From contig MERQ01000068.1 in NCBI GenBank assembly GCA_001770655.1, positions 17,621 to 81,620 of the forward strand: DNA of 64,000 bases, read 5' to 3'. The notes beneath the pieces are model-generated. The model was not told where the DNA came from and made no database searches. It saw nothing but the letters and a program-made list of their open reading frames with translations. A program made the translations under genes and the position numbers. Origin of the DNA: Betaproteobacteria bacterium RIFCSPLOWO2_12_FULL_68_20 (GTDB lineage: Bacteria; Pseudomonadota; Gammaproteobacteria; Burkholderiales; SG8-39). Shown here in pieces: positions 368 through 10,875 of the stretch (the first letter of the stretch is position 1; each line of letters opens with the position of its first letter).

Positions 368-1309
368 ATGCAGCTCCTCTTCGTCATCGATCCGCCGGGC
401 TCGCTCAAGGCCTACAAGGATACGACCGTGGCCATGATGCGCGCGGCGCAGGCGCGCGGCCACGCGGTGCACGTTTGCGAGCAGACGAGCCTCGCCTGGC
501 GCGACGCTCGCGTGTCGGCCGAGGCGACGCGCATCGCGCTCGCCGGCGGCGACCAGGACTGGTACCGCGCGCACAGTAGCGCCAACCGGCCGCTCGCCGG
601 GTTCGACGCGGTGCTGATGCGCAAGGATCCCCCGTTCGACCTGGAGTACGTGACCAGCACCTGGCTGCTCTCGGCCGCAGTGCGCGAGGGCGCGCGCGTG
701 TTCAACGCGCCGGATGCGATCCGCGACCACAACGAGAAGCTCGCGGTGGCCGAGTTCCCGCGCTTCGTCGCGCCGACGCTGGTTTCGCGCGAGGCCGAGC
801 GCATCCAGGCGTTCGTCGACGCCGAGCGCGACGTGGTGCTGAAGCGCCTCGACGTGATGGGCGGCGAGAACGTCTTCCGCGTGCGCGCCGACGATCCCAA
901 CCGCAACGTGATCGTCGAGGTGATGACGCAGGGCGGCGCGCGCACCGTGATGTGCCAGCGCTACATTCCCGAGATCGCGCAGGGCGACAAGCGCGTGATC
1001 CTGATCGACGGAAAGCCCGTGCCGCACGTGCTCGCGCGCATCCCCAAGCCGGGAGAGTCGCGCGGCAACCTCGCCGCCGGCGCGCGGGGGGTGGCGCAGC
1101 CGATCTCCGCGCGCGAGCGCGAGATCGCCGACGCGGTCGGCCCGGTGCTCGCCGCCCGCGGGCTGTTGCTGGTCGGCCTGGACGTGATCGGCGACTGGCT
1201 CACCGAAGTCAACGTCACCAGCCCCACCTGCTTTCGCGAGATCCAGGACCAGGCCGGGTTCGACGTCTCGGGCATGTTCCTCGACGCGCTCGAAGCGAGG
1301 CTCAGGTGA
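368..1309 (+). CDS. gshB: Glutathione synthetase
   Basis: KDTT..MM, MRKDPPFD, NEKL, GDKR, RGNLAAG and EVNVTSPT motifs; 313 aa. Confidence 0.96.
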   Translation: MQLLFVIDPPGSLKAYKDTTVAMMRAAQARGHAVHVCEQTSLAWRDARVSAEATRIALAGGDQDWYRAHSSANRPLAGFDAVLMRKDPPFDLEYVTSTWLLSAAVREGARVFNAPDAIRDHNEKLAVAEFPRFVAPTLVSREAERIQAFVDAERDVVLKRLDVMGGENVFRVRADDPNRNVIVEVMTQGGARTVMCQRYIPEIAQGDKRVILIDGKPVPHVLARIPKPGESRGNLAAGARGVAQPISAREREIADAVGPVLAARGLLLVGLDVIGDWLTEVNVTSPTCFREIQDQAGFDVSGMFLDALEARLR

Positions 1310-1710
1310 TCGGGGTCCTCATCGTCACGCACGGCACCATCGGCGAATCGCTGCTTTCGAGCGCGGCGCAGATCCTGGGCGAGGCGCCCGCGCAGGCGGC
1401 GGCGCTCGGCGTGTCGCGCAGCGACGATCCGGACCGGGTGCTCGAGCGGGCGCGCGCCTTGGTGGCGCAGCTCGACCGCGGCGAGGGCGTGCTGGTGCTC
1501 GCCGACATCTTCGGCGCCACGCCCTGCAACCTGTGCGTGCGGCTGCTCGAAGACGGCCGCGTCGAGGGCGTCTCGGGCGTGTCGCTGCCGATGCTGCTGC
1601 GCGTGCTCACGCGGCGCGAGGGCCCGCTCGCCGACGCGGTGCGGCGCGCGCTCTCGGGCGCCGCGGAGGGCGTGGTGCACATGAACACCGACCGGTGCTG
1701 CGATGGCTAG
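1306..1710 (+). CDS. PTS EIIA component, mannose/fructose family
   Basis: GTG start overlaps the gshB stop; IGVLIVTHG, DIFGATPCN and GVSLPML motifs. Confidence 0.92.
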   Translation: MIGVLIVTHGTIGESLLSSAAQILGEAPAQAAALGVSRSDDPDRVLERARALVAQLDRGEGVLVLADIFGATPCNLCVRLLEDGRVEGVSGVSLPMLLRVLTRREGPLADAVRRALSGAAEGVVHMNTDRCCDG

Positions 1711-1972
1711 CGCGCAGGCCGAGATCGTCAACAAGCTGGGGCTGCACGCGCGCGCCGCGGCCAGGCTCACCAACGTGGCGAGCGGTTTCGAGGCGGACAT
1801 CTGGCTCACCCGCAACGAACGCCGTGTCAACGCGAAAAGCATCATGGGCGTGATGATGCTCGCCGCCGGAAAGGGCACCACGGTGCTGATCGAGGCCGAG
1901 GGGGCCGACGCCGACCAGGCGATCGCCGCCCTGCTGGCGCTGATCTCCGACCGGTTCGGCGAAGGGGAATGA
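1703..1972 (+). CDS. ptsH: Phosphocarrier protein HPr
   Basis: NKLGLHARAA (His15) and NAKSIMGVMML (Ser46). Confidence 0.96.
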   Translation: MASAQAEIVNKLGLHARAAARLTNVASGFEADIWLTRNERRVNAKSIMGVMMLAAGKGTTVLIEAEGADADQAIAALLALISDRFGEGE

Positions 1973-6096: not shown

Positions 6097-6701
6097 GCCC
6101 CGCCGAACAGTCGCTCCTCGCCGCCCGCCCGGACCTCGCCGCGGTGGCGCAGTGGGTGGCGCGCGGCGCGCGCGTGCTCGACCTCGGCTGCGGCGACGGG
6201 TCGCTGCTTCGCTACCTGTGGCAGGCGCGCGAGGCGCCCGGCTACGGGGTCGAGATCGAGGACGACAGCGTGATCGCGTGCGTGAAGAACGACGTCAACG
6301 TGCTGCAGCTCGACCTCGAGAGCGGGCTGTCCCTTTTCCGCGACGGCACGTTCGACTGCGTGATCCTCTCCGAGACGCTGCAGACCATCCACCGCACCGA
6401 GCAGCTGCTGCGCGAGATGCTGCGCGTCGGGCGCGAGGCGATCGTGAGCTTCCCCAACTTCGGCCACTGGGCGGCGCGATTGCAGGTGCTGTTCGGCAGG
6501 ATGCCGGTGTCCGAGGCGCTGCCCTACCAGTGGTACGAGACTCCGAACGTGCACATGTGCACCCTCGCCGACTTCGAGGACCTGTGCCGCAGGCTCGGCA
6601 TTCGCATCCGCGAGCGGCTGGTGCTGCACCAGGGAAGGTCGGTGGGCCTGCTGCCGAACCTCCTCGGCAGCCACGCGGTCTATCGCTGTACGGCTCAATA
6701 G
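6093..6701 (+). CDS. metW: Methionine biosynthesis protein MetW
   Basis: [19 protein letters not shown] and [12 protein letters not shown] motifs; coupled to metX. Confidence 0.94.
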
Positions 6702-6717
6702 AGGGAAGGAGAGCGAC

Positions 6718-7122
6718 ATGAAGATCGACGGCGGCTGCCATTGCGGCAACATCACCTATGAAGCGGAAGTCGACCCGGAGAAGGTCGCGATCTGCCACTG
6801 CACCGATTGCCAGACCATGTCTGGATCGGCCTTCCGCGCGGTCGTGCCCGCTGCGAGCGACAAGTTCAAGCTGCTCAGCGGGCAGCCGAAGATCTACGTG
6901 AAAACCGCCGAAAGCGGCAACCCGCGCGCCCAGGCGTTCTGCCCCGAATGCGGCACGCACCTCTACTCCGCGGCCGTGAAGGACACGCCGAGCTACGGCA
7001 TCCGCCTCGGCACGGTGCGCCAGCGCGCGCAGCTCACGCCCAAGCGCCAGGTTTGGTGCCGCTCGGCGCTCGGCTGGGCGATGGAGGCGGGTTCGATCCA
7101 GCCGCAACTCGATAGGCAGTAG
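6718..7122 (+). CDS. GFA family Zn-binding protein
   Basis: GGCHCG, CHCTDCQ and FCPECGT motifs; strong SD. Confidence 0.92.
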   Translation: MKIDGGCHCGNITYEAEVDPEKVAICHCTDCQTMSGSAFRAVVPAASDKFKLLSGQPKIYVKTAESGNPRAQAFCPECGTHLYSAAVKDTPSYGIRLGTVRQRAQLTPKRQVWCRSALGWAMEAGSIQPQLDRQ

Positions 7123-7129
7123 CAGGCGC

Positions 7130-8170
7130 GTGGCCCGGCTGCGCGAGCTGCTCGGCATCGAGCTGCCGATCATCCAGGCACCGATGGCGGGCGCGCAGGC
7201 GAGCGCGCTCGCGGTCGCCGTGTCGAACGCCGGCGCGCTCGGGTCGCTCCCCTGCGCGATGCTGGCGCTCGACGCGATGCGCAAGGAGCTTGCCGCGATC
7301 ACGGCGCAGACGGCGAAGCCTTACAACGTCAATTTCTTCTGTCACGCGCCGCCCGCGCCCGATGCCGCCCGCGAGGCGGCGTGGCGCGAGGCGCTCGCGC
7401 CGTACTACCGGGAATACGGGATCGACCCGGGCGCGATCCCCGAAGGGCCGGGGCGCGCGCCGTTCAGCAGCGACGCGGCCGACATGCTGGAGGAATTCAG
7501 GCCCGCGGTCGTCAGCTTTCATTTCGGCCTTCCTGCGCCGGAGCTGCTCGCGCGAGTGAAGAAGCTGGGCGCGAGGATATTTTCTTCGGCGACGACGCTC
7601 GAAGAGGCGCGCTGGCTCGAGGCGCGAGGAGTGGACGCGCTGATCGCGCAAGGGCTCGAGGCCGGCGGGCACCGCGGCATGTTTCTCACCGACGATGTGA
7701 ATACCCAGATCGGCACGTTCGCGCTGCTGCCGCAGATCGTGCGCGCGGTGAAGGTCCCGGTGATCGCGGCGGGCGGCATTGCCGATGCCAAAGGCGTCGC
7801 GGCCGCGCTCGCGCTCGGCGCGGCGGGCGTGCAGGTCGGCACGGCGTATCTCCTCTGCCCCGAGGCGCTGACAGGTGCCGCGCACCGCGCCGCGCTGAAG
7901 AGCGACGCCGCGCGCCACACCGCGCTCACCAACCTCATCACCGGCCGCCCGGCGCGCGGCATCGTGAACCGCTTGATGCGCGAGCTCGGGCCGATGCGCG
8001 CCGGCGTCCCCGCCTTTCCGCTCGCCACCGCGGCGATCGCGCCGCTGCGCGCCAAGGCCGAAGCGAAGGGCGCGGGGGATTTTTCGCCGCTGTGGTCGGG
8101 ACAGAACGCGAGCGGATGCAGGGAAGTGCCGGCCGCCCGGCTCACGCGCGAGCTCGCTGCCGATCTCTAG
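7130..8170 (+). CDS. Nitronate monooxygenase family flavoprotein
   Basis: PIIQAPMAG, QGLEAGGHRG, PVIAAGGIAD and LWSGQ motifs. Confidence 0.92.
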   Translation: MARLRELLGIELPIIQAPMAGAQASALAVAVSNAGALGSLPCAMLALDAMRKELAAITAQTAKPYNVNFFCHAPPAPDAAREAAWREALAPYYREYGIDPGAIPEGPGRAPFSSDAADMLEEFRPAVVSFHFGLPAPELLARVKKLGARIFSSATTLEEARWLEARGVDALIAQGLEAGGHRGMFLTDDVNTQIGTFALLPQIVRAVKVPVIAAGGIADAKGVAAALALGAAGVQVGTAYLLCPEALTGAAHRAALKSDAARHTALTNLITGRPARGIVNRLMRELGPMRAGVPAFPLATAAIAPLRAKAEAKGAGDFSPLWSGQNASGCREVPAARLTRELAADL

Positions 8171-8180
8171 GGAGACGCCC

Positions 8181-8480
8181 ATGGCTCCGGATCCGATGAA
8201 CCCGGCGAGCGAAAGCTCGCGCTCCGACTCGATGCTGCGCCGATTGCTGGGAGCGATGTCGGTTTTCACCATGCTCATGACGGTGCCGCAGGTGCTCACC
8301 ATCTGGGTCGGCCACCAGGCGGCCGGCGTGTCGGTCATCTCCTGGAGCGCCTATCTCCTCTCGGCGGTGCTCTGGCTGTGGTTCGGGATCCGCAAGCGCG
8401 ACAAGAACATTTATTTGCCCTGCGTGGGCTGGATCGGGCTCAACGGTGCCGTGGTCGCCGGCGCCCTCGTTTACGGATGA
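8181..8480 (+). CDS. Small 3-TM PQ-loop / SemiSWEET-like membrane protein
   Basis: MTVPQV, A.GVS..SW and LWLWFGI..RD pattern with three hydrophobic segments; start may be 8196 or 8232. Confidence 0.7.
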   Translation: MAPDPMNPASESSRSDSMLRRLLGAMSVFTMLMTVPQVLTIWVGHQAAGVSVISWSAYLLSAVLWLWFGIRKRDKNIYLPCVGWIGLNGAVVAGALVYG

Positions 8481-8487
8481 TTTGACG

Positions 8488-8844
8488 ATGACGATCGCCG
8501 CGGATATCGCCGTAGTCGTGGTGGCCCTGCTGCACCTGTATTTTCTCGTCCTGGAGATGTTTCTCTGGGACAAGCCGCTCGGCCGCCGCATCTTCGGCCT
8601 CAGCCCGGAGTTCGCGAGCGCGTCGAAATCGCTCGCCATGAACCAAGGCCTGTACAACGGGTTTCTTGCCGCGGGCCTTGTCTGGGGGTTGAGCCTCGGC
8701 GCGGCCGGAAATCCGGTCAAGATCTTCTTTCTCGCCTGCGTCGTGGTCGCGGGAATCTTCGGCGCGGCCACCGCGAGCCGCAATATCCTCTGGGTGCAGG
8801 CTGCTCCCGGCGCCGCGGCGCTCGCGCTGGTGTGGCTGTCCTGA
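8488..8844 (+). CDS. DUF1304 family membrane protein
   Basis: HLYFLVLEMFLW and LAMNQGLYNGFLAAGL motifs. Confidence 0.88.
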   Translation: MTIAADIAVVVVALLHLYFLVLEMFLWDKPLGRRIFGLSPEFASASKSLAMNQGLYNGFLAAGLVWGLSLGAAGNPVKIFFLACVVVAGIFGAATASRNILWVQAAPGAAALALVWLS

Positions 8845-8853
8845 CGGTCCGGG

Positions 8854-8882
8854 TTGACCGGCGCTTCCGCGTTCCTTATCAT
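8854..8882 (+). promoter_or_regulatory. sigma70-type promoter of the RHH two-gene module
   Basis: TTGACC-17 bp-TATCAT, followed by an AT-rich palindromic stretch (8892-8912) and SD GAGGT. Confidence 0.7.
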
Positions 8883-8923
8883 GTTCATGTGCATATGTTG
8901 ATCAATTCGAATCGAGGTCGGCG

Positions 8924-9199
8924 ATGAAGACCGAGCGCGTGGTGATCCTGATGACGCCCGAGCAGAAGCGCGCCATCGCACATCGCGCCAAAGCACTTGA
9001 CGTGTCCGTGGCCGAGCTCGTTCGGCGTTCCGCGGAGGGATTCGGCAGCGGCGCGGACGAGGCGACCCTGGCGGCGCTCGCCGCCGAGCTGCACGGAGCG
9101 GTCAAGGAGAGCCGGGCCGCCCTGCGCGCGGCGATCGGCGAAGCCGAAGCGACCTTGGCGCAACTCGGCAGGCGCCGCAAGGACCGGCAGGCCGCCTGA
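8924..9199 (+). CDS. Ribbon-helix-helix (CopG-like) DNA-binding protein, putative antitoxin
   Basis: N-terminal beta strand TERVVILM, helix, then turn-helix DVSVAELVRR; helical C-terminal half. Confidence 0.75.
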   Translation: MKTERVVILMTPEQKRAIAHRAKALDVSVAELVRRSAEGFGSGADEATLAALAAELHGAVKESRAALRAAIGEAEATLAQLGRRRKDRQAA

Positions 9200-9396
9200 T
9201 GGCTGCGCTCGACCAGATCATCGGCGGCGTCAAGGAGGTGCTCAAGATGAGCGGCGAGATCAAGCGCTTGTCCGATTCCGTGCGCGAGCTCAGCACCGAA
9301 GTGCGCGATATCGACCGGCGAGTGGTGCGCCTCGAGACGATGGTCGAGCTCGCGCAGGCTTCGCGCGGCGCGAAGCGCTTGCCGCCCAAAGGCTGA
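9199..9396 (+). CDS. Uncharacterised 65-aa coiled-coil protein
   Basis: TGATG coupling to the upstream gene; heptad-like IKRLSDSVRELSTEVRDIDRRVVRLETMV; host-like codon use. Confidence 0.75.
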   Translation: MAALDQIIGGVKEVLKMSGEIKRLSDSVRELSTEVRDIDRRVVRLETMVELAQASRGAKRLPPKG

Positions 9397-9414
9397 TCCC
9401 GCCTCCCGGCCGGC

Positions 9415-10875
9415 TTGCAGACACGACCGAAGCTGCTGAAGTCGAAGTTCTTCTGGGTCGCGCTGCTGTATTTCGCCGAAGGATTTCCGTTCGGCGTCTT
9501 CTACGAAGTCTTTCCCGTCTATTTTCGCCAGCAGGGCGTCGAGCTCAAGTCGATAGGCCTGATCAGCCTGCTCGGGCTGGCGTGGACGCTCAAGTTCCTG
9601 TGGGCACCGGCCATCGATCACTACCGCCGTCATCGCCTGTGGATGGCGACGGTCGACCTCGCGATGGGGGGCGTCATGCTGGCGTTCGCGTTCGTCGCGG
9701 GCCTCGGGCCCTGGGTATGGGCGGCGATCGGCTTGTTCACCATTCTCTCGGCGACCAACGACATCGCCATCGACGGCTACACCATCGAGCTCCTAGATCG
9801 GAACGAATTGGGGCTCGCGAACGGCATCCGGATCGGCTTCTACCGCGTCGGCCTTCTCGCGTCGGGCCTGGCGCTCGTACTCTCCGACTGGATCGCGTGG
9901 CCGGGCGCGTTCGCCGTCAGCGCCCTGATTCTCGCCGCCTCGGCCGTCGGCTGCCTGATGGCGCCGCGCGAGCCGGTGGTTGCGCGGGTCGACACCGACT
10001 CGCTGCGCACCGAGCTTGCAAGGATCGCCGCGCGGCCGCGCGCCGTGGCCGCGGTGGCCGGCCTGCTGCTGCTCACGCTCTGGCTCATGGATGCAGCCAT
10101 GCAATGGTCACGCGGTACGAGCGATTTCTGGTGGGCGGCCACCAGCGTTGCGGTCGTGCTCCTCATCCTGTCATTCGCGTACTCCCTCGCTCGCCCGGTT
10201 CGGGCCGCGAATGACGCGGGCTCGAGAGGGCCCATGTTCGGGGCGCTGCTCGAACTGCTCGGGCGGCCCGGGATCCTCCCGGTGCTCGGCTTCATCCTGA
10301 TTTTCAAACTGGGTGATGCCTCGATGGGGTTCATGGTGAAGCCGTTCTGGGTCGATGCGGGCTTCTCCGCCACCGAGATCGGCCTGGTGTCGGTCAACAT
10401 CGGAATCGTGCTGTCGGTCGCGGGCGGCCTGGTAGGCGGCTGGTACGCCGACCGCGTGGGGATTTTCCGGGCGCTCTGGGTGCTCGGCCTGTTTCAGGCG
10501 CTCTCCAATCTTGGCTACGCGCTTGCGGCCTGGTTCCTGACAGCCGCGGGTACCCTGGCCGCCGAAGATCGCATCATCGTCTATGCGGCGAGCGCTGCGG
10601 AATCGTTCACCGGCGGTCTCGGTACTGCCGCGTTCCTCGCGTTCCTCATGGCGATCGTCGACAAGCGGCGATCGGCGGCGGAATACGCGCTGCTTTCCTC
10701 CGTATTCGCCTTATCGCGATCCGTTGCCGGCTGGGCGAGCGGATTCGGCGCGCAGGAGCTCGGCTATGCGCCCTACTTCCTTCTGACCTTCCTGCTTTCC
10801 TTTCCCGCTTACCTGCTGCTGCCGTGGGTGGCGCGAATGCTGCAGCGCCCTCCGGAGTCTGCGGCTACGGCCTAG
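9415..10875 (+). CDS. ampG: AmpG family muropeptide MFS permease
   Basis: LYFAEGFP, WTLKFLWAP.ID, SATNDIAIDGY and FKLGDA motifs. Confidence 0.85.
   Translation: MQTRPKLLKSKFFWVALLYFAEGFPFGVFYEVFPVYFRQQGVELKSIGLISLLGLAWTLKFLWAPAIDHYRRHRLWMATVDLAMGGVMLAFAFVAGLGPWVWAAIGLFTILSATNDIAIDGYTIELLDRNELGLANGIRIGFYRVGLLASGLALVLSDWIAWPGAFAVSALILAASAVGCLMAPREPVVARVDTDSLRTELARIAARPRAVAAVAGLLLLTLWLMDAAMQWSRGTSDFWWAATSVAVVLLILSFAYSLARPVRAANDAGSRGPMFGALLELLGRPGILPVLGFILIFKLGDASMGFMVKPFWVDAGFSATEIGLVSVNIGIVLSVAGGLVGGWYADRVGIFRALWVLGLFQALSNLGYALAAWFLTAAGTLAAEDRIIVYAASAAESFTGGLGTAAFLAFLMAIVDKRRSAAEYALLSSVFALSRSVAGWASGFGAQELGYAPYFLLTFLLSFPAYLLLPWVARMLQRPPESAATA

Follow-up and report, generated by a model that had tools for sequence, protein, structure and literature searches.

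What is a two-gene locus for when its first protein carries a DNA-binding head of the kind found in antitoxins and its second appears to be a single long helix that matches no known toxin? The question is raised by positions 8854..9396 of a 64,000-nucleotide (nt) stretch of contig MERQ01000068.1 from Betaproteobacteria bacterium RIFCSPLOWO2_12_FULL_68_20, an uncultured, Burkholderiales-like organism of soil and groundwater (the whole stretch is called the window here), where two short genes, A and B, lie behind a promoter. We approached it with sequence and model data throughout, namely AlphaFold2 models, Foldseek searches, scans of the Pfam, NCBIfam, PADLOC and PHROGs libraries, and comparison of related loci; the sequencing runs listed with the stretch are of DNA from soil and groundwater metagenomes, with no RNA run among them. 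By this comparison, the A–B pair is a conserved, widespread two-gene module. The reading that we favor, with a confidence a little short of even, is that the module is a self-contained, autoregulated cassette resembling a type II toxin–antitoxin (TA) system, acting in addiction or abortive defense, in which B would be a new, non-enzymatic helical effector.

The features of the locus, by position in the window, are these.

8854..8882, plus strand: sigma70-like promoter TTGACC-17-TATCAT (TTGACC at 8854-8859, TATCAT at 8877-8882), agreeing with the consensus at 10/12 positions.
8881..8907, plus strand: candidate operator repeats ATGTTCA / TGTGCAT / ATGTTGA, over and just 3' of the -10 box, with ATGTGCATATGTTG at 8887-8900.
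8914..8917, plus strand: ribosome-binding site GAGG, read from the sequence, 6 nt 5' of the ATG at 8924.
8924..9199, plus strand: gene A, 91 amino acids (aa); predicted ribbon-helix-helix (RHH) head at about residues 1-39 (8924-9040) and long helix at residues 43-90 (9050-9193).
9197..9201, plus strand: TGATG stop/start overlap from A to B with one shared base; probable translational coupling.
9199..9396, plus strand: gene B, 65 aa; predicted single long amphipathic helix at residues 2-59 with a basic tail; candidate effector/toxin or co-repressor.
9313..9348, plus strand: B core motif D39-R-R-V-V-R-L-E-T-M-V-E50, its conservation taken over 147 representatives.

The promoter, the two genes and the TGATG overlap all stand where a first-pass annotation of the window had put them. 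This is the one sigma70-like site between 8400 and 9900, where shuffled sequence gives an expectation of 0.3, and near-consensus promoters occupy the equivalent position in related loci. The spacer upstream of A (79 nt to the preceding gene) has 54% GC, compared with 69% for the window. Both proteins are basic, with an isoelectric point of ~10. Because GC at codon position 3 is 0.87 in A and 0.89 in B, and because most differences from the closest relative (L020) are synonymous (35 synonymous-only versus 24 amino-acid-changing differences in the 91 codons of A, and 21 versus 12 in the 65 codons of B), A and B can be taken as true genes rather than noise of GC-rich DNA.

The evidence that the two genes belong together is comparative. 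In the 41 genomes compared from this family and order, B occurs in 4 and A-like sequences in 6, and every B lies directly 3' of an A; the six adjacent A–B loci are spread over these 4 genomes, two copies each being found in the genome of the window (G000) and in G015. Scanned with the B-derived peptide pattern R[VL]VR[LI]ETMV, a set holding a single genome for each species gave 101 relatives, from which 80 loci (L020-L099) were kept; the record titles of the relatives name mostly gammaproteobacterial metagenome-assembled genomes (MAGs), and also Desulfobacterota, Nitrospirales, Alphaproteobacteria, Burkholderiales and one member of the Parcubacteria. A DNA-binding partner is encoded just upstream of B, or fused to it, at 78 of the 80 loci, and the partners fall into RHH type ii (55), RHH type i (17), AbrB/MazE (2) and unclear (4). 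At 65 loci the partner matches the A profile and nearly always stops where B begins. Of the 15 others, eleven encode at that position an RHH-type protein that diverges further from A and is ~90 aa long apart from one truncated copy; the last four comprise L030 and L036, where a similar helical tail bears an AbrB/MazE-type head (matching Pfam MazE_antitoxin, best E 1.2e-9), one locus at a contig edge, and L040, which is partnerless. The junctions are regular too. A and B overlap by 1 nt at 55 of 81 junctions and by 4 nt (ATGA) at 15, making 70 with one or the other; nine more lie within 7 nt (one of them, L015, being a mis-picked frame), which leaves L032, where the overlap is 14 nt, and L040. 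When open reading frames (ORFs) flanking 84 loci within 4.5 kb were clustered by BLAST, no conserved neighbor emerged except A itself (72 loci). The first-pass annotation had expected an obligate pair, patchily distributed and set in varied contexts, and that is how the pair behaves, with adjacency at all six related loci and at nearly all other-species loci, presence in a small minority of related genomes, no third conserved gene and neighbors that differ from locus to locus.

Profile matches and the predicted fold support the assignment of A as an RHH (CopG/Arc/MetJ) protein with one long C-terminal helix. The A of the window scores 26.3 bits against Pfam NikA-like (PF21983), 0.7 bit short of the cut-off of 27, and matches RHH_1 weakly; in 69 aligned relatives, RHH_1 is matched by 35, NikA-like by 29 (E <= 0.01) and MazE_antitoxin by 2. 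NCBIfam matches among the same 69 are scattered at the level of a generic RHH protein (aCcr1 in 15, RelB-like antitoxin in 9, MobA in 4, TraJ in 4 and MazE in 2). The AlphaFold2 model built from the family alignment (predicted local distance difference test, pLDDT, 90.5) has an extended segment at residues 1-11, helices at 12-24 and 29-39, and an uninterrupted helix at 43-90. A Foldseek search of the PDB with this model gave no match at E <= 0.001, and all its rows span the RHH head only (~40 residues). The top row is CopG (1ea4_B; probability 0.97, target TM-score 0.87, root-mean-square deviation 1.1 over 41 columns, E 0.21), followed by the heads of the RHH antitoxins Rv0298, KacA, AtaR, TacA, ParD, VapB and CopA. 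A wide VIA-align search matched the tail of A to generic long helices only (Z ~6), and PADLOC-DB 2.0 (2023 library) has 0 families matching A and 0 matching B. The protein collection has 56 close relatives of A and 31 of B; those given a name at the source are called "hypothetical protein" or bear spurious-looking names, and nearly all are metagenomic. We regard A as a candidate autorepressor and antitoxin-like adaptor.

Protein B is the more unusual of the two. Its AlphaFold2 model is one 58-residue helix (residues 2-59, pLDDT 91). The B of the window has no family match above threshold in Pfam, NCBIfam, PADLOC or PHROGs, and among 90 relatives scanned a Pfam family appears in 5 at most and an NCBIfam family in 1 at most; in particular, the family libraries gave no match between B and the known toxin superfamilies (RelE/ParE, MazF/CcdB, PIN, HicA, Doc/Fic, GNAT, HipA, zeta, RES and others). 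When the PDB was searched with the profile of the B family, only generic coiled coils came up, the best being GpsB (E 0.0086). In the ESM Atlas the nearest clusters are unnamed ("hypothetical protein"; 253, 61 and 90 members), and the nearest named ones, DUF7201, DUF5798 and DUF2730, at 0.78-0.80, are at the level of leads only. The first-pass annotation had described A as an RHH-like head with a helical tail and B as a near-pure amphipathic helix lacking any recognizable toxin motif; the profile matches and models bear out the former, the single-helix model and the library scans bear out the latter, and the further concern that B might belong to a known non-toxic family found no substance in the same four libraries.

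A pattern-free HMMER search of 1.84 billion representatives recovered 934 B-like clusters at E <= 0.001, of which 205 reach E <= 1e-10. Because the best 150 of these matches are all of 45-93 aa, B seems always to be a free-standing small protein. The longer or fused forms (12 matches) look by eye like A–B read-through or frameshift products or like B joined to a neighbor, and among them B is never a domain of a characterized protein. Over 147 representatives at <=50% identity, conservation is concentrated in a C-terminal core (D39 0.88, K/R40 0.91, R41 1.00, R44 1.00, E46 0.99, T47 0.95, E50 0.94), outside which B is far more variable, with most N-terminal positions below 0.6. B thus appears from the alignment to carry a near-invariant D-[KR]-R-x-x-R-x-E-T-x-x-E motif. 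These statistics come from the HMMER set, whose profile still weights the motif; in L020-L099 its invariance holds by construction because the peptide pattern selected them. If the heptad core is placed at residues 38, 42, 45, 49 and 52, then on our reading R41 falls at g and E46 at e, five residues apart, in the geometry of an inter-helix salt bridge, and R44, T47 and E50 face outward. Such conserved, outward-facing charged residues suggest a conserved partner outside the module.

How might the two helices relate to each other? Pairwise identities correlate most strongly between the A tail and the N-terminal half of B (Spearman 0.86), less so between the A RHH head and the same half (0.70), and least between the A tail and the C-terminal half of B (0.52). 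This covariation fits a pairing of the A tail with the N-terminal half of B, and it is weak support because linked genes share ancestry. The two helices are not homologous by hhalign (A-tail profile against B profile, probability 0.4%). A complex prediction for A residues 38-91 with B scored 0.08 against a mark of 0.32, a result that counts neither for nor against binding. Four short A relatives of 59-62 aa (P0080, P0081, P0083 and P0084) keep the first residues and the helical tail and have no RHH core; judged by their sequences, such tail-only forms could bind B without DNA binding.

Every locus examined has a near-consensus promoter upstream of A that is overlapped by repeats, and the type of repeat follows the type of head. 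At loci with type-ii RHH heads, whose strand is RKQFLVS-like, TGTGTAT stands in two or three direct copies, spaced 10-13 nt, from -35 to -10; these occur at 44 of 54 type-ii loci and in 0 of 47 control regions taken 800-900 nt upstream. Where the head is of type i (TERxxIL-like; the A of the window belongs here), the -10 box is covered by inverted repeats, with perfect arms of at least 7 nt at 12 of 15 loci and in 4 of 62 controls. Repeats related to those of the window precede A in 6/6 loci from relatives, L020 having the perfect palindrome ATGCACATGTGCAT. These sites are also rare elsewhere. With up to one mismatch, ATGTGCATNTGTTG has exactly two sites in the 3.48-Mb genome, both at A promoters, where a control pattern has 0; and exact TGTGTAT-N5-TGTGTAT lies at the module's own promoter in 5/5 other genomes, with one extra site in total, which is without A and B. 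The operator would thus be essentially private to the module promoter, and because its sites are essentially confined there, the module appears to regulate itself and to have no regulon. Since repeat type covaries with head type, we infer that A binds the predicted operator repeats. In the standard picture, as given in one published account (PMC7167474), antitoxins bind inverted repeats in their own promoters.

Other repeats add observations of their own. The two loci with AbrB/MazE (SpoVT) heads, L030 (5657-6162, Methylococcaceae MAG) and L036 (495-1003, gammaproteobacterial MAG), have a different repeat, one containing TCTAC, at the promoter. In G041, the genome of L053, the identical 19-mer TGGGTATTGTTGTGTGTAT occurs 41 times on both strands of a 4-Mb chromosome (for example, at C1:125797-125815); it probably belongs to some dispersed repeat or insertion sequence with no connection to the module. 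In the genome of the window, the promoter of the second copy (L015) carries ATGTGCATNTGTTG as well, and because this site is common to both promoters the two copies might cross-regulate.

At that second copy (contig C35 of G000, 412-930), A is intact and the B frame has no canonical start: it opens at an ATC right after the TAG of A, and its first start is a TTG 10 codons in. Decay of the toxin next to an intact antitoxin is often seen in TA loci. Beside L015 are two small ORFs, at 953-1438 (minus strand) and 1526-1768 (plus strand), the latter of which looks antitoxin-like to us.

The surroundings of the module look mobile-like in a mostly chromosomal setting. In the relatives G014 and G009, metX, metW and a major facilitator superfamily (MFS; AmpG-like) gene are adjacent. 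In the window, 2.7 kb (6701-9415) separate metW from the MFS gene and encode a GFA-like protein, a nitronate monooxygenase, a 99-aa membrane protein and a DUF1304 protein, followed by A–B; a third relative has at this site a different 2.3-kb insert, with a gene for a 673-aa membrane protein on the other strand. The metW–MFS junction is therefore, by comparison of these genomes, apparently a variable genome site, and junction variability is all that follows from the empty-site comparison, in which the flanks are too loosely conserved. Only 18 nt (9396-9415), in which no terminator-like site was found, lie between the stop of B and the TTG start of the MFS gene, because of which transcription from the A–B promoter may run on into that gene.

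Elsewhere, unrelated housekeeping genes (for example, polA, uvrA, parC/parE, groEL and mnmG) make up most of the 134 nearest-neighbor ORFs taken from 70 loci, and ~14 of those ORFs are TA-, transposase-, integrase- or defense-like (RelB, ParE, two PIN, two Fic, two integrases, DDE_3, IS200, two DUF4143 ATPases, RloB and HNH). Housekeeping genes stand on both sides of nearly all copies, whose contigs, of up to megabases, are most likely chromosomal. One A–B copy is on the Marinobacter nanhaiticus plasmid pD15-8W, 3 kb from a GNAT/DUF1778 gene pair, and RefSeq calls both of its proteins "hypothetical protein." At L022 (600-3395), tandem A–B pairs (1201-1643 and 2106-2566) have an integrase fragment and a gene for a RelB antitoxin at their flanks, and from its gene content the locus looks like a small island of TA-like cassettes.

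How, then, might the module work? If it is a TA-like cassette, A would dimerize through its RHH head and repress its own promoter at the repeats. A heteromeric coiled coil between the C-terminal helix of A and the N-terminal half of B, its variable part, would keep B inactive and may strengthen repression. Were A lost or degraded, free B would act through its near-invariant C-terminal surface, binding and blocking a conserved cellular component. That action would be stoichiometric because B has no room for an enzymatic fold. A module that regulates only itself needs an output, for which B is the sole candidate. The signature that argues for such a cassette consists of the gene order and coupling of two small co-directional genes, the exchange of DNA-binding heads of antitoxin type while the partner helix is kept, strong promoters with private operator repeats, and patchy, multi-copy, context-free spread; what departs from type II systems is that B falls into no known toxin superfamily in Pfam, NCBIfam, PADLOC or PHROGs. 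A bolder proposal is that B is the first of a new class of type II toxin or abortive-defense effector, a free-standing helix of ~60 residues that acts stoichiometrically, with its motif on a conserved target and its N-terminal half held by the helix of an RHH- or MazE-type antitoxin, in a widespread and unannotated TA family of environmental Pseudomonadota, Desulfobacterota and Nitrospirota. This we put forward tentatively, as possible and on balance doubtful.

Several observations weigh against a TA-like cassette. First, B is a single helix without a known toxin fold, and we know of no type II toxin so shaped. Second, R41 and E46 could just form a parallel coiled-coil salt bridge and be no part of a target surface. 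Third, tblastn with the B of the window found 1 match among 72,556 plasmid records, fewer than expected of a classic addiction module, and 0 among 50,697 phage records, counts of limited reach because the query is single and short. Fourth, L040 (2383-2759) has an intact B and no A; the place of A is taken by a truncated, oppositely oriented ParE/RelE-like gene, which shares the first 34 nt of B, and a complete ParE-like gene lies at 1511-1804. Finally, in two Desulforhopalus MAGs (L092, 422-712; L098, 5602-6117) a single 91-aa protein joins a type-i RHH head through a short linker to the motif-bearing C-terminal half of B, the A tail and the N-terminal half of B both being absent. The two fusion genes differ over 92 codons by 25 synonymous-only and 11 amino-acid-changing differences, because of which the fusion is taken to be kept by purifying selection; by eye, one amino acid change is in the RHH head, none is in the motif, and the rest are in the linker and C-terminal tail. 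The A tail and the N-terminal half of B thus seem dispensable together, as expected if they are mainly bound to each other. Yet the fusion also means that the motif is tolerated without the proposed neutralizing helix and tethered to a DNA-binding head.

Much of this bears equally on another reading, in which the pair is a split repressor with no toxin at all. A would supply the RHH head and B a co-repressor or oligomerization helix, the two forming a coiled-coil assembly that bridges RHH dimers on adjacent repeats and allows B to tune repression. The predicted shapes, one long helix in the A tail and another in B, suit such an assembly, as do the lack of a toxin-like fold in B and the tandem operator repeats, whose 10-13-nt spacing would favor cooperative binding by several dimers. 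The invariant R41 (g) and E46 (e) fit a coiled-coil salt bridge, the Desulforhopalus protein joins head and B helix in one chain under purifying selection, and the orphan B of L040 is intact. On the other hand, a repressor whose operator is essentially at its own promoter only is of no evident use unless it is selfish or carries an effector. Swapped heads (including the MazE type), patchy spread, several copies and changing surroundings are what one expects of TA cassettes, and the outward-facing R44, T47 and E50 are nearly invariant, whereas oligomerization helices usually keep the heptad pattern only. We regard the split repressor as a serious possibility that falls well short of probable. 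The first-pass annotation had offered a TA pair with a helical toxin or, alternatively, a repressor/partner switch; the former draws strength from the swapped heads, private operators, two copies in some genomes and plasmid copy, but the fused RHH–B protein and the orphan B fit a repressor equally well or better, and so the annotation is borne out in part, without a firm choice between its two alternatives.

Two further possibilities fare much worse. The module could be a leftover of mobilization or partition, A being a relaxosome protein like NikA, MobA and TraJ or a centromere binder like ParG, B a structural partner, and the repeats oriT- or centromere-like. NikA-like is indeed the best Pfam match of the window's A, at 26.3 bits, and is found in 29 of the 69 relatives, weak NCBIfam matches to MobA and TraJ accompany it, repeats do lie upstream of A, and the plasmid copy is 5.5 kb from a ParB-domain gene. 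But the NikA-like match is confined to the generic RHH head, a single plasmid record matches, nearly all copies sit amid housekeeping genes on contigs that are most likely chromosomal, and the 84 loci share no conserved gene within 4.5 kb, be it for a relaxase, a ParA-type ATPase or anything else; because no relaxase or ATPase is ever nearby, we consider this explanation improbable. That A, B or both are mere chance open frames, as the many long spurious ORFs overlapping the region on both strands in a window of 69% GC might suggest, is effectively refuted by the conservation data, given the third-position GC, the excess of synonymous over amino-acid-changing differences, the homologous pairs in far lower-GC genomes of several phyla, and the number of B clusters found at either threshold.

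Comparison with known systems places the TA-like reading more exactly. The module is like type II TA systems with RHH or AbrB/MazE antitoxins (ParDE, RelBE, FitAB, TacAT/KacAT and MazEF) in having a small DNA-binding gene first and a coupled second gene, an A made of a DNA-binding head and a C-terminal extension, promoter-overlapping repeats, exchange between RHH and MazE heads, and a patchy, multi-copy, context-free distribution; the best structural rows of A likewise include antitoxins (Rv0298, KacA, AtaR, TacA, ParD and VapB), over the RHH head only. It differs in that B is a predicted 58-residue helix with no similarity to the toxin families of Pfam, NCBIfam and PADLOC or to solved structures, and in that there is a natural A–B fusion without the presumed neutralizing helix. 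The phage P22 Mnt repressor, the analogue for a split repressor, joins an RHH head to a C-terminal coiled-coil tetramerization domain, and the Desulforhopalus fusion looks like a one-chain version of that architecture; in the module, however, the helices are split over two coupled genes and the B motif is strongly conserved, and the likeness is at the level of architecture only. In SinR–SinI, a DNA-binding regulator with a helical multimerization tail is accompanied by a small helical partner, SinI, that is homologous to the SinR tail and can pair with it. The arrangement here is similar, but the A tail and B have no profile similarity (by hhalign), and the head of A is RHH, whereas that of SinR is a helix-turn-helix. 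To the relaxosome proteins NikA, MobA and TraJ (PF21983; NF041264, NF010451) the RHH head of A comes close, just below the Pfam cut-off in the window and with a match in many relatives, but the similarity is only in the generic head, and conserved transfer genes, like relaxase genes, are absent from the 4.5-kb surroundings. Three-component TA systems (omega-epsilon-zeta, PaaR-PaaA-ParE) have their toxin encoded by a further conserved gene, and A–B has no such third gene within 4.5 kb.

The B family is without a model in Pfam, NCBIfam, PADLOC and PHROGs, and the sole RefSeq record seen says "hypothetical protein." A literature search found no published description of the A–B pair, although supplements and the TADB, TASmania and NetFlax tables, which were outside its reach, might list it. 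We rate the type II TA-like architecture as known and the single-helix second component as unprecedented.

The meaning of the module depends on which way B acts. A toxic B would make this a type II module with nothing but a coiled-coil helix for a toxin. It would represent a new and probably stoichiometric route to growth arrest, whose conserved target the near-invariant motif could help to identify. If B is not toxic, the pair would be a mobile, purely self-regulating repressor pair whose spread needs explaining. Either way, it is an unannotated family in which a clear operator motif and natural domain swaps should make dissection easy.

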